DNA from: Candidatus Thorarchaeota archaeon
GTDB taxonomy: Archaea; Asgardarchaeota; Thorarchaeia; Thorarchaeales; Thorarchaeaceae
Direction of reading: 5' to 3'
Assembly: GCA_046482545.1 (NCBI GenBank)
Contig: JAWOEX010000045.1
Span: 20,069 to 84,068, forward strand
Length of the DNA: 64,000 nt
The notes under the pieces were generated by a model. That model was not told where the DNA came from. It was given only the letters and a program-made list of their open reading frames with translations, and did no database searches. Both the position numbers and the translations under genes were made by a program. This document shows positions 1,489 to 64,000 of this stretch, piece after piece (position 1 is the first letter of the stretch; every line of letters starts with the position of its first letter).

Positions 1489-2916
1489 TCAGTGTTTCTT
1501 GATTATCTTCCGCATCTCTTTCTCGATATCCTTGTCTAGCGGTTCAACTTCATGTGTTTCTAAGATTTCCTTCACCTTCTCTCTGGCTCTCTGAACCATG
1601 TCCTTCTTGCCTTTGGCTTCCCAATCGGGTCGAGAAGATCGGTCCGTGATTTTGGGGTGCCACTGTTCATTTTGTACATGTTTCATAGTGAATTCCAATC
1701 CTGCATCTGCTGTCAGATGGTTTGTCTCGTGTCCGACTGCTTCTATAACATCAACTGCCAGCGTTTCCTTTGTTACATCCATGCCTTTTGCCACACGCTT
1801 GATTGCTTCACATATGTCATTGCTTATTGCAAATTGCTCGTAGCATGCGGTGACTCCAGCCTCCAAGATTCCATACACTCCATCATGGATAACATCTGCT
1901 CCAGCCAAGGTGGCAATAAGAGCATTCATGGTGTTTTCGTAGGCGGCTTGTGGGTCGGGTGCCTTTGAATCTACAACTCCCGCCGCACCATAATATGGTA
2001 TTCCATAATAATTCGCCATTTGAATGAAGGCGGCATGGATCAACCCATTCTCAGGGCAACCATAGGCTGCAGTGCCGCCTCTTTGGTCCAGGATTGTACT
2101 GCATGAACCCCACATAATAGGTGTGCCGGGTCCTTCAAGCTGAGTTAGTACCACGACTGCGTGATTCTCTGCGATTCCCTGAACAACCATGCCAGCTAAT
2201 GTGACTGGCCCGCTTGCACTTGCTAGTGCCCCTGTACTGATATCAAATGGAATTCTATACTTTGCACATTCAAGTATCATTTCAATAATGTCGTGTGAGT
2301 ACTTCAAAGGTGGAACGTTGTTGAATCCAGTGTCAATGATGGATGGATGCTTGATGAACTCTTCTTCCCCTCCGGCTAGAATTTTCGCCATCTCTATGAC
2401 ATCTCTGAATCCTTCCGGAGTCAAAGCTAGAACACTACAGTGTTTTTCGGTATTTTTGAACATAGAAAGGGCCATCTCTTGTTGCAGTACATCCTGGGAG
2501 AGATCTTGAGGCATAATATTCGGCTTGACGTAATCAACAGTGGGGAAATAATCTGAAAGAAGAGTAAATTCATCGAGGTCATCTAGCGTTGCAAGCCTAC
2601 GTTCTTGCGTTTCGAGATCTATGACATAGTGTGCCCCAAATGCATTTGTGAAATATGAGTTGCCATCACCAATCAGGATGTTGTGTTCCGGATTCCTAGC
2701 TCTGAGCAAGTCTCTGCTTGGCGTCCTTGTCAAAGCTTCACGGACAAGATACTCAGGAATCTTGGCGAGCTTTTTCTTTTCATCAACTATTGCACCGGCA
2801 TCTTTGAGAATTTTGAGTGCTCGATCGTGTTGAATTCTAACTCCAACTCTTTCAAGAACTTCCATCGCCGCCACATGTATGTCATATACTTCTTCTTCAG
2901 TTAACAAGCTGAACAT
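1489..2916 (-). CDS. mttB: Trimethylamine methyltransferase (MttB) superfamily protein, non-pyrrolysine
   Basis: LLTEEEVYDIH..AMEVLERVG N-terminus, GPVTLAG, AAYGCPE, DSKAPDPQAAYE motifs; no in-frame TAG. Confidence 0.9.
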   Translation of the reverse strand: MFSLLTEEEVYDIHVAAMEVLERVGVRIQHDRALKILKDAGAIVDEKKKLAKIPEYLVREALTRTPSRDLLRARNPEHNILIGDGNSYFTNAFGAHYVIDLETQERRLATLDDLDEFTLLSDYFPTVDYVKPNIMPQDLSQDVLQQEMALSMFKNTEKHCSVLALTPEGFRDVIEMAKILAGGEEEFIKHPSIIDTGFNNVPPLKYSHDIIEMILECAKYRIPFDISTGALASASGPVTLAGMVVQGIAENHAVVVLTQLEGPGTPIMWGSCSTILDQRGGTAAYGCPENGLIHAAFIQMANYYGIPYYGAAGVVDSKAPDPQAAYENTMNALIATLAGADVIHDGVYGILEAGVTACYEQFAISNDICEAIKRVAKGMDVTKETLAVDVIEAVGHETNHLTADAGLEFTMKHVQNEQWHPKITDRSSRPDWEAKGKKDMVQRAREKVKEILETHEVEPLDKDIEKEMRKIIKKH

Positions 2917-58739: not shown

Positions 58740-59233
58740 ATCCTGCAACTCCTTTTCGGACAGCAGATGAGGGGAGTTTGTTAGGCTCAGTACGGGATCC
58801 CAGTTCAGTAGGATTAGGCAAGTGGGCTAGTGCTGTAACACGACGCCCGCGGCCGAAAGCTGTGAGGTGGACTCGTTCCACTAAGCAGAAGTCCCCACAC
58901 TCCGAACAAGGGTCCTCATCAGGCCTTGGAGAGTCCGCGGCTGTTCGCTGTGTCCAACTGGACCTGTCCAGCTTCGGCGACGAGACTGGACCGAGCGATA
59001 ATAACCCTGCCGTGGCAAAAACTGTAGGACCACTTGCTGCCCCCAGATGTGATGTGTCTGGACGCGAACAGGAGATAGAAGCCGAGACTGCAGGAGGGAC
59101 GGTGTCCTGATGATGGCGGCCAAAGCCCTTGCTTGGCCGGAGGTAGCGCCCCTGTATGGCGGCGACGCTGGGCAAGGGAAGGGTGGAACGCAGAGGTTTC
59201 AAACAGTGTACGCAACTGTAAGAAACGGGTTAT
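58740..59233 (+). ncRNA. Full-length copy (A) of the ~490-nt structured RNA-like element
   Basis: GC-rich intergenic block homologous to 45665-46153 and 13072-13381; multiple covarying stems and GNRA loops. Confidence 0.85.
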
Positions 59234-59284
59234 ATCCGACAGTCATTAATACCGGTATCTACCAACCCCACCAGAGTTGGTATA

Positions 59285-59992
59285 ATGGTCCGGCAAGACG
59301 GCCGCGAAAATGACGAGCTCCGCCCAGTAGAAATCACACGCGATTATCTCAAGCATCCAGAAGGTTCGGTGTTGATTACAACTGGCGAGACGAAAGTGAT
59401 ATGCACCGCTACTGTAGAAGATGGTGTACCGGGTTGGCTGAACGGAAAAGGGCAAGGATGGTGCACTGCAGAGTACGGTATGCTCCCGCGATCCACTGAT
59501 AATCGTATCAATCGATACCGAAGAAGCGGTCGTACCTATGAGATTCAGCGATTGATCGGACGGTCACTGCGAGCAGCTCTGGACCTCGGATCCTTGGGTG
59601 AACATACCCTCCGCATCGATTGTGATGTCATCCAGGCAGATGGCGGTACCCGCACAGCATCGATTACGGGTGGTTACATCGCTCTTGTTGATGCTGTGGA
59701 TTACATGCTGACGATGGAGATGATACCGGAGACCCCCCTTGTTGGTACCGTTGCTGCTGTGAGTGTTGGTGTGGTCAACAGTGAGTGTCTCCTCGATTTG
59801 TGTTACATAGAGGATTCCACTGCTGACGTTGACATGAATATCGTGATGAAGGATAGTGAATTCGTTGAGGTACAGGGTACTGCTGAAGGGGAGACCTTCA
59901 ATCGGGTCCAGATGGATGAGATGCTGGATCTGGCTGCCAAGGGCTGCCAAGAATTGATGGAAGAGCAGGAACGCAGCCTGTGTCCTGAGTAG
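59285..59992 (+). CDS. rph: Ribonuclease PH (bacterial type)
   Basis: [63 protein letters not shown]. Confidence 0.93.
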
Positions 59993-60475: not shown

Positions 60476-63068
60476 CGGTTATATGATTAGGACTGCAATT
60501 CGTTGTACGGTTGTTGGTGGATGACTCGGTTGACATGCCGAAGAAGGACGCGACAAGCGGCGATATGCCGTGGGTAGGCGCATGAAGCCATTGATCCACG
60601 GGATTCCGAATAGGACCTCTGAGCACGGGCTATTACCTCGTGCTATTCCCGAGTCATTTCGGGAAGGGGAACGCTCAGAACTGAAACATCTTAGTATGAG
60701 CAGGAGTAGAAAACAAGTCGTGATTCCCTTAGTAACAGCGAGCGAAAAGGGAAAAGGCCAAACTGAACCCCATCACGAAGAGTGCTGGGGGATGTGGTGT
60801 ACGGGCCACGGACAAGTGCCTCAACGTTGAAATCAAAGTCGTCTGGAACGACGCGGCAGAGAGGGTGACACCCCCGTAGGTGTAAGACGTTGGCATGTCT
60901 GTGAGTCCCAGAGTAGCATGGGTCAGTTGTCTCGTGTGAATATCGCAGGTACAATCTGCGAAGCCTAAATACTATGTCAAACCGATAGCAGACTAGTAGC
61001 GCGAGCGAAAGTTGAAAAGTACCGCGGAAGCGGGGTGAAAAGTACCTGAAACCAGCAATCTAATCAAAGGATGCTGATTAAAAGAGGAGATACTCAGGGA
61101 ACGAATCAGGAGAGATCCTGTACTAGGACCTGAGTGGATCGAATCAGCATCATCCGTCTTGAACCACGGACCAGGGAGTTCATAGAAGTGGCGAGGATAA
61201 GGTGTAACAGCCGTAAACGAAGGGAAACCAACATGCCCGCAGCCGGGCAATCCGGTGAGGGGCGACGTCTACAAGGGCGTGTAGTCACAGCTATGACACG
61301 AGAAACCAGTCGATCTAGGCTTGGTCAGGGTGAAGCCGGGCGAAAGCTCGGTGGAGGCCCGATAGGGTTCTGATATACAAATCGTTCCGTTGAACTGGGC
61401 CTAGGGGTAAAAGGCTTATCTAGACTGGTGATAGCTCGTTCTCCGCGAAGTTGGTCGCAGCCAAGCTCTGCCTGAGATATCATGTGGTGTAGAGCACTTT
61501 CGGACGACTCGGGATCCCTTACGGGATTTCACCGTCCTGAAAACTCCGAAGTTGCATGAATCGTAGATGGCAGGAGAAGGGTACCCGGGGTAAGCCCGGC
61601 AGGCCGAGATGGGGAGAACCGAGAGTGTGGTTAAGGTCCCTAAGTGCCAGATAAGTGCGATAATGAAGGGCGTCGAGAGCCCAAGACAGTCTGGGGGTGA
61701 GCTTAGAGGCAGCTATCCCCGAACGAAAGCGTAACAGCTCACAGACCGAGGCTCTTGGCCTCTAAAATGGACGGGGCTAAATCTGGCCACCGAGACCATA
61801 CCGCACGCGGGTAACACTGCGTGATCGGGTAGCGGAGCGACCTGATGGGATAGAAGTAGGGCCGTGAGGTCCTGTGGACCCGTCAGTTTTGATCATCCTG
61901 GTAGTAGTAACAGCGAAGCATGGTGAGAATCCATGCCACCGAAAGGGAAAGGGTTCTTCGGCAATGCGTCGTCAGCCGAAGCTTAGTCGGTTCTAAGTGG
62001 CATCGTAATTCGCGTGTCACGAAAGAGAATCAGGTTAATATTCCTGAACCTCGGAAGTACTCTACGCGGTAACGCTAAGCCGGACTTGTAACTCATCCGG
62101 ATATGCCAAATACAGCCTTCGCTGTATTTAACAAGATAATCCTGCCGAGTACCGTAATGGTGAGACGTAGGAGAAACTTGGAATAGCGGGTGGTTGATCA
62201 TCCGTTTGGCCTATTCCCGGTGACCTTGAAAAACGAGTCCGGAAGAATCTTCCGAGTCCGTACCCAGATCTGACACAGGTTCCCTGGCTGAGAAAGCCAA
62301 GGTGTATCCAGTTCACTCCAGTTGAGGGAAATCGGCCAATTAGCAGCGTAACTTCGGGATATGCTGTGCCTAGGTTGGTTCACGCCTTCCCAGGTCTTTT
62401 GTTACTAGGGGGTCCCAACTGTTTAATAAAAACATAGCTGACTGCGAGCGCGTAAGCGTTAGTACAGTCAGTGACTCCTGGTCTGTGCCCGTATGTTAAA
62501 GCTCCGGAAGGGGTCCAAGCACGGGTCAACGCCGGGACTAACTATGAGTCTCTTAAGGTAGCCATACGCCTTGTCGGTTAAATGCCGACGTGCATGAAGG
62601 GATTAATGAGGGCCCCACTGTCCCCAACTGGAACTGGGTGAACCTACACCGTACCGAATAGTGTACGTAGCGCCAATGGGAAGAGAAGTCCCTGCGGAGG
62701 TTTACTACGCAGCCTGTTATTGCCATCTTTGCCTTCGTGCAAAGCGTAGTCAGGAGCGTTGAACCCCAACTCCTGGGTTGGGAGGATGCGACCATGTAAC
62801 ACTGACCACGTAGACGAGGGTGGCTAACCTAGGCCCAGTGTGCCTAGGGACACTTTCAGGTAGGCAGTTGGGCTGGGGCGGCACGCGGCTGACATCAGAT
62901 CAGCCGCGACCAATGCTGAGCTCAGAGGCGACGGAAACGCCTCGTTGAGATTAAGGGCATAAGCTCGGCTGATGGGATCCCGCCACGCAAAGGATCCCGG
63001 GGCGAAAGCCTGGCCTATCGAACTTCCTTATAGCCAATTGTAAGTGCAGGAAATGACAAAAAACTTAC

Positions 63069-63100
63069 GGGTCTTCAGAGTCATTCTGAAGGCCGAGGAA
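63069..63100 (+). other. 32-nt archaeal BHB intron after the position equivalent to E. coli C2440
   Basis: Interrupts CTTAC|CCCAGG; 10-bp hairpin GGTCTTCAGA/TCTGAAGGCC; bulges AC^G and AA^C. Confidence 0.85.
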
Positions 63101-63110
63101 CCCAGGGGTA

Positions 63111-63296
63111 TGTAACCCCGGTATTGTCATTCCGAGTCGCTTCAAGGCTGTGACTTCTCTCATCTACGTAAGAATTGATTTGAGATTATAGTCTTGAGTC
63201 GATTCGGGATACTGTACTGGCAGGCTGACGGAGCTGGTAAGTTATAGCAAGTTACAACTGGCTCCGAAGCTTGAGATTCGTTCTAGTTACTCCCAT
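63111..63296 (+). other. 186-nt ORF-less archaeal BHB intron between the equivalents of A2450 and A2451
   Basis: Interrupts GGGGTA|ACAGAG; GTAAC/GTTAC stem, GGGG/TCCC central helix, bulges TA^T and AT^A. Confidence 0.88.
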
Positions 63297-63809
63297 ACAG
63301 AGTTGTCGCGGGCAAGAGTTCATATCGACCCCGCGGCTTGCTTCCTCGATGTCGGCTCTTGGTATCCTCGGGTTGCATAAGACCCGAAGGGTGCGGGTGC
63401 TCACCGATTAAAACCGATCGTGAGCTGGGTTTAGACCGTTGCGAGACAGGTCGGTTTCTATCTATTGGCGCTGTTGGATGTTTGATGGCAAGATAATGTT
63501 GGTACGAGAGGAACGCATTGTCGCAGCCTATGGTGTACCCATTGTCCGGAAGGGCAGCGTGGGGTAGCTAAGCTGCAATGGATAACAGCTGAATGCATCT
63601 AAGCTGGAAGCCACACCAAAAAAGAAACATCCACTTACTAGACAATTGCTGCAAAGCAGCGTGGCACTGGTGACAGTGACGCGTGTCTGGAAACGAGGAC
63701 TCTCGTAGAAGACGAGGTTAATAGGGCGGGGGTGTAAGCACCGAGCTCCGGCGAGGTGTTCAGCTCACCGCTACTAATGTCCGAGGCGAGCAGACCGAAA
63801 ATATAGCTC

Positions 63810-63871
63810 GTGCAACACCTAGAGTTGTCAAGATTTGGGTCAGACCTCAGTAAAGCAGTACCTCCATCCTC
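63810..63871 (+). other. 3' arm of the pre-23S processing stem
   Basis: Complementary to 60419-60475. Confidence 0.85.
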
Positions 63872-64000
63872 AGCATGTATTTTATTTCAGTAGAGTTGTT
63901 TTTGAAAAGAGCTGATTTTCCGTGTAGCCCCCTGCATTCTATACTTGCTTCTACTTCCTCTGGAAATCAAATCCTAGAGCAAGTAAGTCAAGGCGCTCGA

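Follow-up and report, generated by a model that had tools for sequence, protein, structure and literature searches.

Putative antisense arms in an intron at the peptidyl-transferase centre of an Asgard archaeal 23S rRNA gene: a candidate cis-acting splint

The 23S rRNA gene at the end of a 64,000-nt stretch of DNA (the window, meaning the whole stretch that was analysed) is interrupted at the peptidyl-transferase centre by two inserts, which are very probably protein-spliced BHB introns, cut by the two-subunit EndA of the host and joined by RtcB. Intron 2 appears from its sequence to carry four antisense arms directed at strands of the peptidyl-transferase centre, which a preliminary description of this DNA had overlooked, and these arms are likely to be under selection. 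The reading favoured here, to which a probability of roughly 0.55 is attached, is that intron 2 acts as a cis-acting splint, which delays helices 73, 74, 88 and 89 and replaces an absent exon-exon helix, with intron 1 being spliced first. The novelty of the locus is carried by the arms; the micro-exon between the introns is, on its own, a modest addition to known cases.

The inserts and their junctions

A search of the genome returned this gene as its only 23S copy. The features discussed below are collected in Table 1, where the E. coli numbering of the sites (2440/2441, 2450/2451 and the A2451 equivalent) follows a motif alignment.

Table 1. Positions in the window of the host gene, its two introns and the elements discussed in the text
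Feature	Position	Strand	Description
Host 23S rRNA gene	60493..63796	+	Rfam RF02540, 2416 bits; sole full copy in genome; unlinked to 16S
Arm b target	62682..62690	+	about 2054-2062; helix 73 / joint to helix 74
Helix 74 5' strand	62690..62703	+	mature partner of mini-exon and exon 1 end; duplex -16.8 kcal/mol
Arm a target	63038..63059	+	about 2411-2432; helix 88 3' strand and joint to helix 74
BHB1 5' half	63063..63069	+	central helix 63063-63066; bulge 63067-63069; cut after 63068
Intron 1	63069..63100	+	32 nt; site 2440/2441; hairpin, stem 63070-63079 / 63085-63094; central-helix strand 63095-63098; absent in congeners
10-nt exon (2441-2450)	63101..63110	+	same bases as in intron-less congeners; cut after 63110
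Intron 2	63111..63296	+	186 nt; site 2450/2451; no ORF; four-way junction; closing helix 63112-63116 / 63286-63290; central-helix strand 63291-63294; cut after 63296
Stem A	63119..63219	+	long hairpin; 5' strand bears arms a and b; 3' strand buries them once transcribed
Arm a	63124..63145	+	antisense to 63038-63059
Arm b	63152..63160	+	antisense to 62682-62690, 9 bp
Stem B	63221..63273	+	63221-63234 / 63261-63273; covarying; arms c and d in conserved loop
Arm c	63236..63243	+	antisense to 2434-2441; spans intron 1 junction (63062-63068 and 63101)
Arm d	63254..63259	+	antisense to 2455-2460 (63301-63306, helix 89 5' strand)
Stem C	63274..63284	+	conserved 3-bp hairpin, 5-nt loop
3' exon start	63297..63306	+	A2451 equivalent at 63297; arm d target 63301-63306

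Much of the preliminary description holds. Its coordinates and lengths for both inserts and the 10-nt exon are exact, its placing of intron 2 directly 5' of A2451 is supported (intron end at 63296, A2451 equivalent at 63297), and the host appears, as it had supposed, to be an Asgard archaeon, with a family that is probably of the Thorarchaeia. It had proposed an alignment to intron-less Asgard 23S genes: two genomes of the same genus (G001 and G002) have unbroken sequence with the junctions exactly as predicted, as do 25 further genomes of the window's family, and the 10-mer, which it had called exon, matches the corresponding segment in the intron-less congeners. The partner that it had assigned to the mini-exon at 62690-62697 is real, and helix 74 covaries in relatives (U2441 with A2070, and U2442 with A2069). 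The claim that neither intron encodes a homing endonuclease also stands, as the longest stop-free stretch in six frames is 40 codons, leaving no long ORF and no LAGLIDADG frame.

The intron region folds far better than its shuffles (z = -6.5), and intron 1 has its own fold (z = -3.7 against shuffles). Counterparts of intron 1, of 32-33 nt and with different stems, are found in three further loci (L002, L009 and L187). In Rfam there is no family for either intron, and weak matches to microRNA hairpins are chance.

That the inserts are retained expansion segments, or an artefact of assembly, is extremely improbable. A chimeric assembly was one of the circumstances that the preliminary description had named as refuting it, and as far as this is testable the DNA argues against it: a contig from DNA run X1, which may or may not be the source sample, spans 63077-63326 with 0 differences (100% agreement). 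Four loci carry both inserts at the same bases with BHB ends; were the inserts retained, helix 74 would be disrupted and A2450 parted from A2451. In RNA contigs from salt-lake metatranscriptomes the two flanks are covered and the inserts are not, and one of these contigs continues across the joined exons. Over 381 nt it differs from the window at 3 positions, the corresponding figures being 14 and 20 for congeners without the introns. The joined contig suggests, rather than proves, splicing, because an intron-less strain would look identical; it comes from a near strain which may itself be intron-less, and that the RNA data are not from a genome proven to carry the introns is the point in favour of retention or artefact. 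The missing cover over the introns is not counted as proof of splicing, and no excised circle was seen in the RNA contigs.

Splice motifs and splicing enzymes

The relaxed BHB motifs reported at both inserts are borne out. Each consists of a 4-bp central helix with 3-nt bulges, and with cuts placed behind the second bulge base the congener sequence is recovered at 4/4 sites. The central helix of BHB1 (63063-63066 / 63095-63098) comprises two Watson-Crick pairs, one G-U pair and one A-G mismatch, the last of these being identical in all four intron-1 loci (a relaxed form); it is accompanied by a 10-bp intron stem, and an exon-exon helix is absent. BHB2 (63105-63108 / 63291-63294) has four central pairs, a 5-bp intron helix and at most one pair at the exon-exon position. 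This geometry is kept in all four intron-1 loci and in 34/34 intron-2 loci, one of the latter having a single central-helix mismatch, and the intron-side helices vary in sequence among loci with their pairing kept. The exon-exon outer helix of the strict hBHBh' motif was found at neither site in any locus: intron 1 has zero pairs there, and most intron 2 loci have a single pair. Both introns are of the relaxed HBh' form, not the strict hBHBh' form. An origin of G2448 as a change that completed the splice motif is not supported, as intron-less relatives across the phylum carry G2448 too.

The genome encodes two EndA subunits and RtcB. The catalytic Tyr/His/Lys triad is present in EndA alpha (187 residues), whose K42 aligns with K44 of the best PDB match, and the second subunit lacks the catalytic His. 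In EndA the loop lysine at the K44 position has been tied to the cleavage of relaxed motifs (PMC5829648), and by this residue the two-subunit enzyme of the host would seem to be of the broad-specificity kind that is able to cut them. Several tRNA genes of the genome are also intron-bearing.

The nearest likeness in motif is to relaxed HBh' tRNA introns cut by the (alpha-beta)2 EndA with a Crenarchaea-specific loop (PMC5829648): the 4-bp central helix, the 3-nt bulges, the presence of an intron-side helix without an exon-side helix, and the matching enzyme type are all shared. However, in those substrates the cloverleaf holds the tRNA halves, whereas here the intron itself appears to be the splint.

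Distribution of the introns

At site 2450/2451 there are 34 intron loci in five families of the Asgard phylum. Six are of the window's type and nine are of a LAGLIDADG-bearing type, counted together with its ORF-less derivatives. A further type, of 335-423 nt and without an ORF, is found in 17/17 genomes examined of family f5, which is inferred to be the Heimdallarchaeaceae; the remaining forms are one of 114 nt (L169) and a 30-nt hairpin (L184). Introns at this site are common in the phylum, a point on which the preliminary description was overstated, and relatives carry a LAGLIDADG gene there.

Intron 1 was found four times, each time beside a window-type intron 2. It is present in three of the five genomes with a window-type intron versus none of the 32 others (Fisher p = 0.0013, which is a guide only, because kin are not independent), and the fourth copy, in L187, is one of one metagenome hit. 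Another metagenome match (L186), near a tRNA gene, was discarded as chance. The carriers are scattered over the tree, in different genera and alongside intron-less sisters; in the window's family intron 2 is absent from 27 of the 37 genomes. The introns are only 66-81% alike across their most conserved 85 nt, and the sequence of the exon flanks tracks the host genus, not the intron.

The arrangement has precedents in the 16S rRNA of the Thermoproteales. In Pyrobaculum, pairs of introns at sites 1205/1213 and 901/908 enclose 8 nt and 7 nt respectively, and a hairpin intron there spreads by co-conversion (PMC4496867). As in those pairs, a short hairpin BHB intron lies 5' of a larger BHB intron with a tiny exon between, and the hairpin is not seen alone (PMC4496867). 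The present pair differs in lying in the catalytic centre of 23S rRNA in an Asgard archaeon, in its 10-nt exon, in a larger intron without an endonuclease, and in its antisense arms, of which none are described in the PMC4496867 survey. Since short exons between tandem rRNA BHB introns are known, the micro-exon is a further case of a known arrangement, and the preliminary description overstated how unusual it is: 16S intron pairs only 7-8 nt apart were already on record (PMC4496867).

Antisense arms of intron 2

Three of the four arms covary with the exon across Asgard families, and the fourth tracks each host. The weight of the case, as read from the alignments, is in this covariation, not in the lengths of the matches in the window alone, where two 8-base upstream matches and one 6-base downstream match arise in 20 of 3000 shuffles. 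A permissive scan of the whole gene with the window-type intron gave recurrent 7-bp matches at about the same level in controls as in the real sequences (6 versus 3-9). Because the background of so loose a scan is high, only arms with compensatory changes were counted; unsupported 7-bp matches at about 788, 1074, 1458 and 1920 were rejected, the null of the recurrence scan being too high. A candidate arm running from stem C to domain II was not borne out by the relatives, and a loop motif shared by intron 1 and stem C holds in three loci and fails in L187.

The target stretch of arm a differs between genera and, with the introns taken as a set, own-host pairing ranks first of 120 permutations. 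The region of arm a also tops an unbiased scan of 280 windows, in which further windows at about 1571, 1611 and 2201 fall within the expected number of false positives. The arm is at its weakest in the window's own copy, where it ranks 16 of 21 exon variants. Arm b is present in five of the six introns of the window's type. It follows position 2062 across families (U2062 here, A2062 in f5) as well as the host-specific bases 2050-2051; by chance, 9 bp is reached in 46 of 3000 shuffles.

Arm c is found in 20/20 introns tabulated from three families, with compensatory changes. It follows the exon at 2436, which is C here and G in f5, and opposite 2441 it has G only where the exon has C and A only where the exon has U, four loci being mismatched. 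Arm d occurs in the same 20 introns and is compensated in L169 at 2458 (U or C); alone, in a single sequence, it is not beyond chance, and it is worth -6.1 kcal/mol versus -17.0 kcal/mol for native helix 89. The order and spacing of arms c and d are constant in the three families. They lie in the invariant loop of stem B, which shows two-sided changes in 7 of 19 pairs (RNAalifold). Stem A folds at -48.3 kcal/mol (z = -8.1), and arm a binds the 3' strand of its own stem A better than it binds the exon in 6/6 introns.

The LAGLIDADG-type intron at 2450/2451 has an arm of its own to 2437-2445, at a fixed distance and kept in the ORF-less derivatives. Further recurrent arms in the f5 type are directed at about 2260-2270, 2481-2488 and 2508-2515, and at the 5' leader and 3' end of the 23S rRNA; those to the leader and 3' end show compensatory changes in L223 and L217. 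Within f5 itself the targets hardly differ, and for this reason no arm emerged as specific to its host. A literature search, with most subscription papers outside it, turned up no account of introns at these positions in Asgard 23S rRNA, and none of BHB introns bearing antisense arms.

It could be supposed that the introns are selfish passengers, intron 2 being the remnant of an endonuclease intron with which intron 1 was co-converted, and the complementarity a functionless result of templated copying. Co-conversion of a hairpin intron 8 nt from a homing intron is documented for Pog.S1205 with Pog.S1213 (PMC4496867), LAGLIDADG introns occupy 2450/2451 in relatives, the carriers are patchily distributed, and in 4/6 loci the 3' strand of stem A is 60-75% sense-identical to the exon over 20-25 bases, like a decayed copy. 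However, arms c and d lie in a loop without a sense copy, where they are invariant while the surrounding stem changes, and they are compensated across families; the target of arm b is 400 nt away; and intron 1 lies beside none of the six endonuclease-bearing introns at 2450/2451. The passenger explanation is unlikely.

It is less likely again that the arms guide mobility, with a circular intron recognising spliced rRNA or an intron-less gene for reverse splicing and reverse transcription. Arms c and d do bracket the insertion site on the spliced sequence, and introns without an ORF turn up in scattered genera with intron-less sisters, but the 66-81% likeness and the host-tuned arm a fit long residence with repeated loss. 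Nor is a partner enzyme evident, the genome's only LAGLIDADG match being to a 1221-codon frame elsewhere.

Comparison with guide RNAs and group I introns

The arms do not conform to known modification guides. In an H/ACA pocket the 3' strand pairs 5' of the target U and the 5' strand pairs 3' of it, followed by the ACA; for arms c and d the order is reversed, and what they enclose is 13 exon bases rather than a U-N step. Box C/D guides have conserved C and D boxes, with guides of 10-21 nt immediately before the D box; here no D box lies at a fixed distance from any arm in the alignments inspected (A1 and A4), and there is no Rfam match to a box C/D RNA. The intron of euryarchaeal pre-tRNA-Trp holds a box C/D guide, and like it intron 2 would be a BHB intron with guides directed at the RNA in which it resides. 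Unlike it, intron 2 has no conserved C/D boxes at guide distance, its arms are of 6-9 nt or interrupted, and its host is an rRNA.

Group I introns are known at the neighbouring LSU site 2449. With those of archaeal and organellar LSU rRNA (PMC6125680) intron 2 shares insertion in the catalytic centre, and its arms recall the group I internal guide sequence, in that an intron-borne guide pairs with both exons. The differences are several: there is no Rfam match to group I at E values up to 10, the junction bases differ (no terminal G and no 5' exon U), the ends are BHB, the length is only 186 nt, and the pairing of the arms lies at a distance from the junction instead of on it.

A proposed splint for splicing

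The pairing of the arms in the cell, its timing and the order of splicing are proposed here from sequence, geometry, covariation and the enzyme genes. The introns sit where the exons cannot form the outer BHB helix and where native helices 74 and 89 would compete for the splice-site bases; native pairing of helices 73, 74, 88 and 89, to whose strands all the arms are directed, would bury bases 2435-2440 and 2445-2450. During transcription, arms a and b would catch the upstream exon and the helix 73/74 strand, keeping the native core from closing over the splice sites. In the predicted nascent fold, with 55 bases of intron 2 made, arm a is base-paired to the exon, with intron 1 and the 10-mer lying inside the loop thus closed. 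Once made, the 3' half of stem A would strip arms a and b off the exon; the finished stem is predicted to bind arm a more strongly than the exon does, which would release the latter. Arms c and d, presented in the loop of stem B, would then hold the exon at either side of BHB2, each of them three bases away from the motif, replacing the missing exon-exon helix and holding the cut ends for ligation by RtcB.

Intron 1 would leave first, at a stage when intron 2 has yet to be released from the 10-mer. This order is the most likely because arm c spans junction 1 and competes with the central helix of BHB1, and it would explain why intron 1 is never seen alone. The preliminary description had held that the layout implies ordered splicing. 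An order is indeed proposed here, from the arms only, but the layout does not force one, since no nucleotide belongs to both BHBs and the two could coexist.

No free-standing copy of stem B was found in 87 genomes of the order (three weak matches have E values of 0.005-0.04). The lack of such an RNA in intron-less relatives fits a role tied to the intron, and it follows that this RNA is not an essential trans factor in the window's family. Several points weigh against the splint. As the 30-nt hairpin of L184 occupies 2450/2451 without arms, the arms are not strictly required at that locus. In the finished intron most of arms a and b is buried, and the predicted unpaired share of arms c and d is only 30-45%; arm d is also weak. 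The f5 arms to the 23S leader and 3' end are hard to reconcile with a local aid to splicing.

Two broader proposals take in the f5 version. The first, which is a tentative possibility, is that the intron at A2451 is a multi-armed folding scaffold, holding the peptidyl-transferase centre open until splicing and thereby providing a built-in checkpoint; jointly with this, the intron of the Heimdallarchaeaceae, where it is seemingly fixed, would also bridge the ends of the 23S rRNA. Viewed in this way, the f5 intron may represent a further step, in the direction of a chaperone such as the yeast snoRNAs snR190 or snR37.

The second, somewhat more doubtful, is that the intron, before excision or as a circle, is primarily a ribosome-assembly chaperone for the peptidyl-transferase centre, any help to splicing being secondary, and that in f5 it also organises the 23S ends, in the manner of snR190 and snR37. 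Several antisense elements to pre-rRNA that covary with their targets were found, as a chaperone of this type would have. In f5 an intron of 335-423 nt without an ORF is present in all 17 genomes examined, its recurrent arms include compensated ones to the 23S leader and 3' end, and the top four weak matches of the window-type model are f5 clamp hairpins (E 0.12-0.53). There is also a precedent in snR190, an RNA without a role in guiding methylation whose pairing partners are helix 73 and domain I (PMC8536666). Like snR190 (PMC8536666) and snR37 (PMC13015370), intron 2 has several short antisense elements to domain V, including helix 73, has no evident role in modification and would have to be released before the core folds. 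The snoRNAs, however, are trans-acting C/D or H/ACA particles from their own genes, whereas intron 2 is an intron of its own target and is without such boxes at guide distance or an Rfam match. The absence of the intron from 27 of 37 genomes of the window's family, with no free copy, further argues that a chaperone is not essential there.

Significance

Archaeal rRNA BHB introns have so far been described as passive hairpins or as carriers of endonucleases, needing only the BHB. An intron whose antisense arms track the host would show how protein-spliced introns persist where the ribosome tolerates least change, and how room is made for a second intron 10 nt away. As a small and testable system it bears on what holds the rRNA halves for RtcB when an exon helix is absent, and on whether the peptidyl-transferase centre had RNA chaperones before the snoRNAs of eukaryotes arose. 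Should the folding-scaffold proposal be true, it would mean that the closest prokaryotic relatives of eukaryotes have an intron-encoded, modification-free rRNA chaperone like snR190.

Introns of relatives at 2450/2451

The site occupied by the window's second intron (2450/2451, E. coli 23S numbering) also carries introns in other genomes. In one family, f5 (probably Heimdallarchaeaceae), an intron of 335-423 nt that lacks an ORF was found at this position in 17/17 genomes examined (loci L170-L183, L197-L200 and L213-L232). It contains recurrent elements antisense to 23S rRNA (see table), and those directed at the 5' leader and 3' end show compensations, in L223 and L217. A second type of intron at the same site codes for a LAGLIDADG_3 protein of 242 residues; ORF-less derivatives of this type (L025, L166 and L168) retain the arm, a short stretch antisense to the host's own 23S rRNA, that is directed at 2437-2445.

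Features located in the window and in the 23S loci of relatives
Feature	Location	Strand	Remarks
f5 intron antisense element	target ~2053-2063		recurrent
f5 intron antisense element	target ~2260-2270		recurrent
f5 intron antisense element	target ~2434-2441		recurrent
f5 intron antisense element	target ~2455-2461		recurrent
f5 intron antisense element	target ~2475-2488		recurrent
f5 intron antisense element	target ~2508-2515		recurrent
f5 intron antisense element	target 23S 5' leader		recurrent; compensated
f5 intron antisense element	target 23S 3' end		recurrent; compensated
LAGLIDADG_3 intron type at 2450/2451	L015:2121-2849; L023, L150-L152, L167		
RNase PH gene, bacterial-type	window 59285-59989	+	TIGR01966, 344 bits, above cut-off
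GC-rich non-coding stretch	window ~58800-59260	+	motifs recalling RNase P RNA by eye; no Rfam match (E up to 1)
PYLIS_3 (pyrrolysine insertion, mttB)	window 1878-1977	-	Rfam, 41 bits vs cut-off 38
Repeated segment, partial copies	window 63737-63930; contigs C13, C17, C18, C19, C31, C32, C45		~30 copies, 75-98% identity

The rRNA genes of the window's genome

Two bases of the window's 23S gene are unusual: a U at 2062 (window 62689) in place of the usual A, which is family-wide, and a G at 2448 (window 63108), again replacing A, which is widespread in the phylum, intron-less genes included. The bacterial-type RNase PH gene lies immediately 5' of this unlinked 23S gene. The final 60 bases of the 23S gene, together with ~130 bases 3' of it, belong to a repeat family with partial copies on several contigs of the genome. 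Two 16S-like genes are present (C2:258-1487 and C33:32736-33800), sharing just 93% identity over 586 nt; in the C33 copy, a hairpin of ~28 nt is inserted close to position 907. A divergent copy, a pseudogene and contamination are candidate explanations for the dissimilar pair.

Further inserts in 23S genes of the phylum

By eye, L185 (genome G267; minus strand, ~365-505) has an apparently nested pair of BHB introns near 2431/2432 and a 31-nt intron at 2446/2447, which appear to isolate a helix 74 exon of ~15 nt. Many more inserts are found in the 23S genes of L219 (G398), L230 (G371) and L232 (G144), some of 300-680 nt and some separated by just ~5-13 nt, as is the case near 785/790 and 1698/1711. 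The introns near 2596-2600 in L218, L219, L224 and L232 all show an antisense match, 7 bases long, to one and the same segment of the upstream exon. Because of this shared match, there is a hint in the sequences that arms may also occur at further sites of the catalytic ring.
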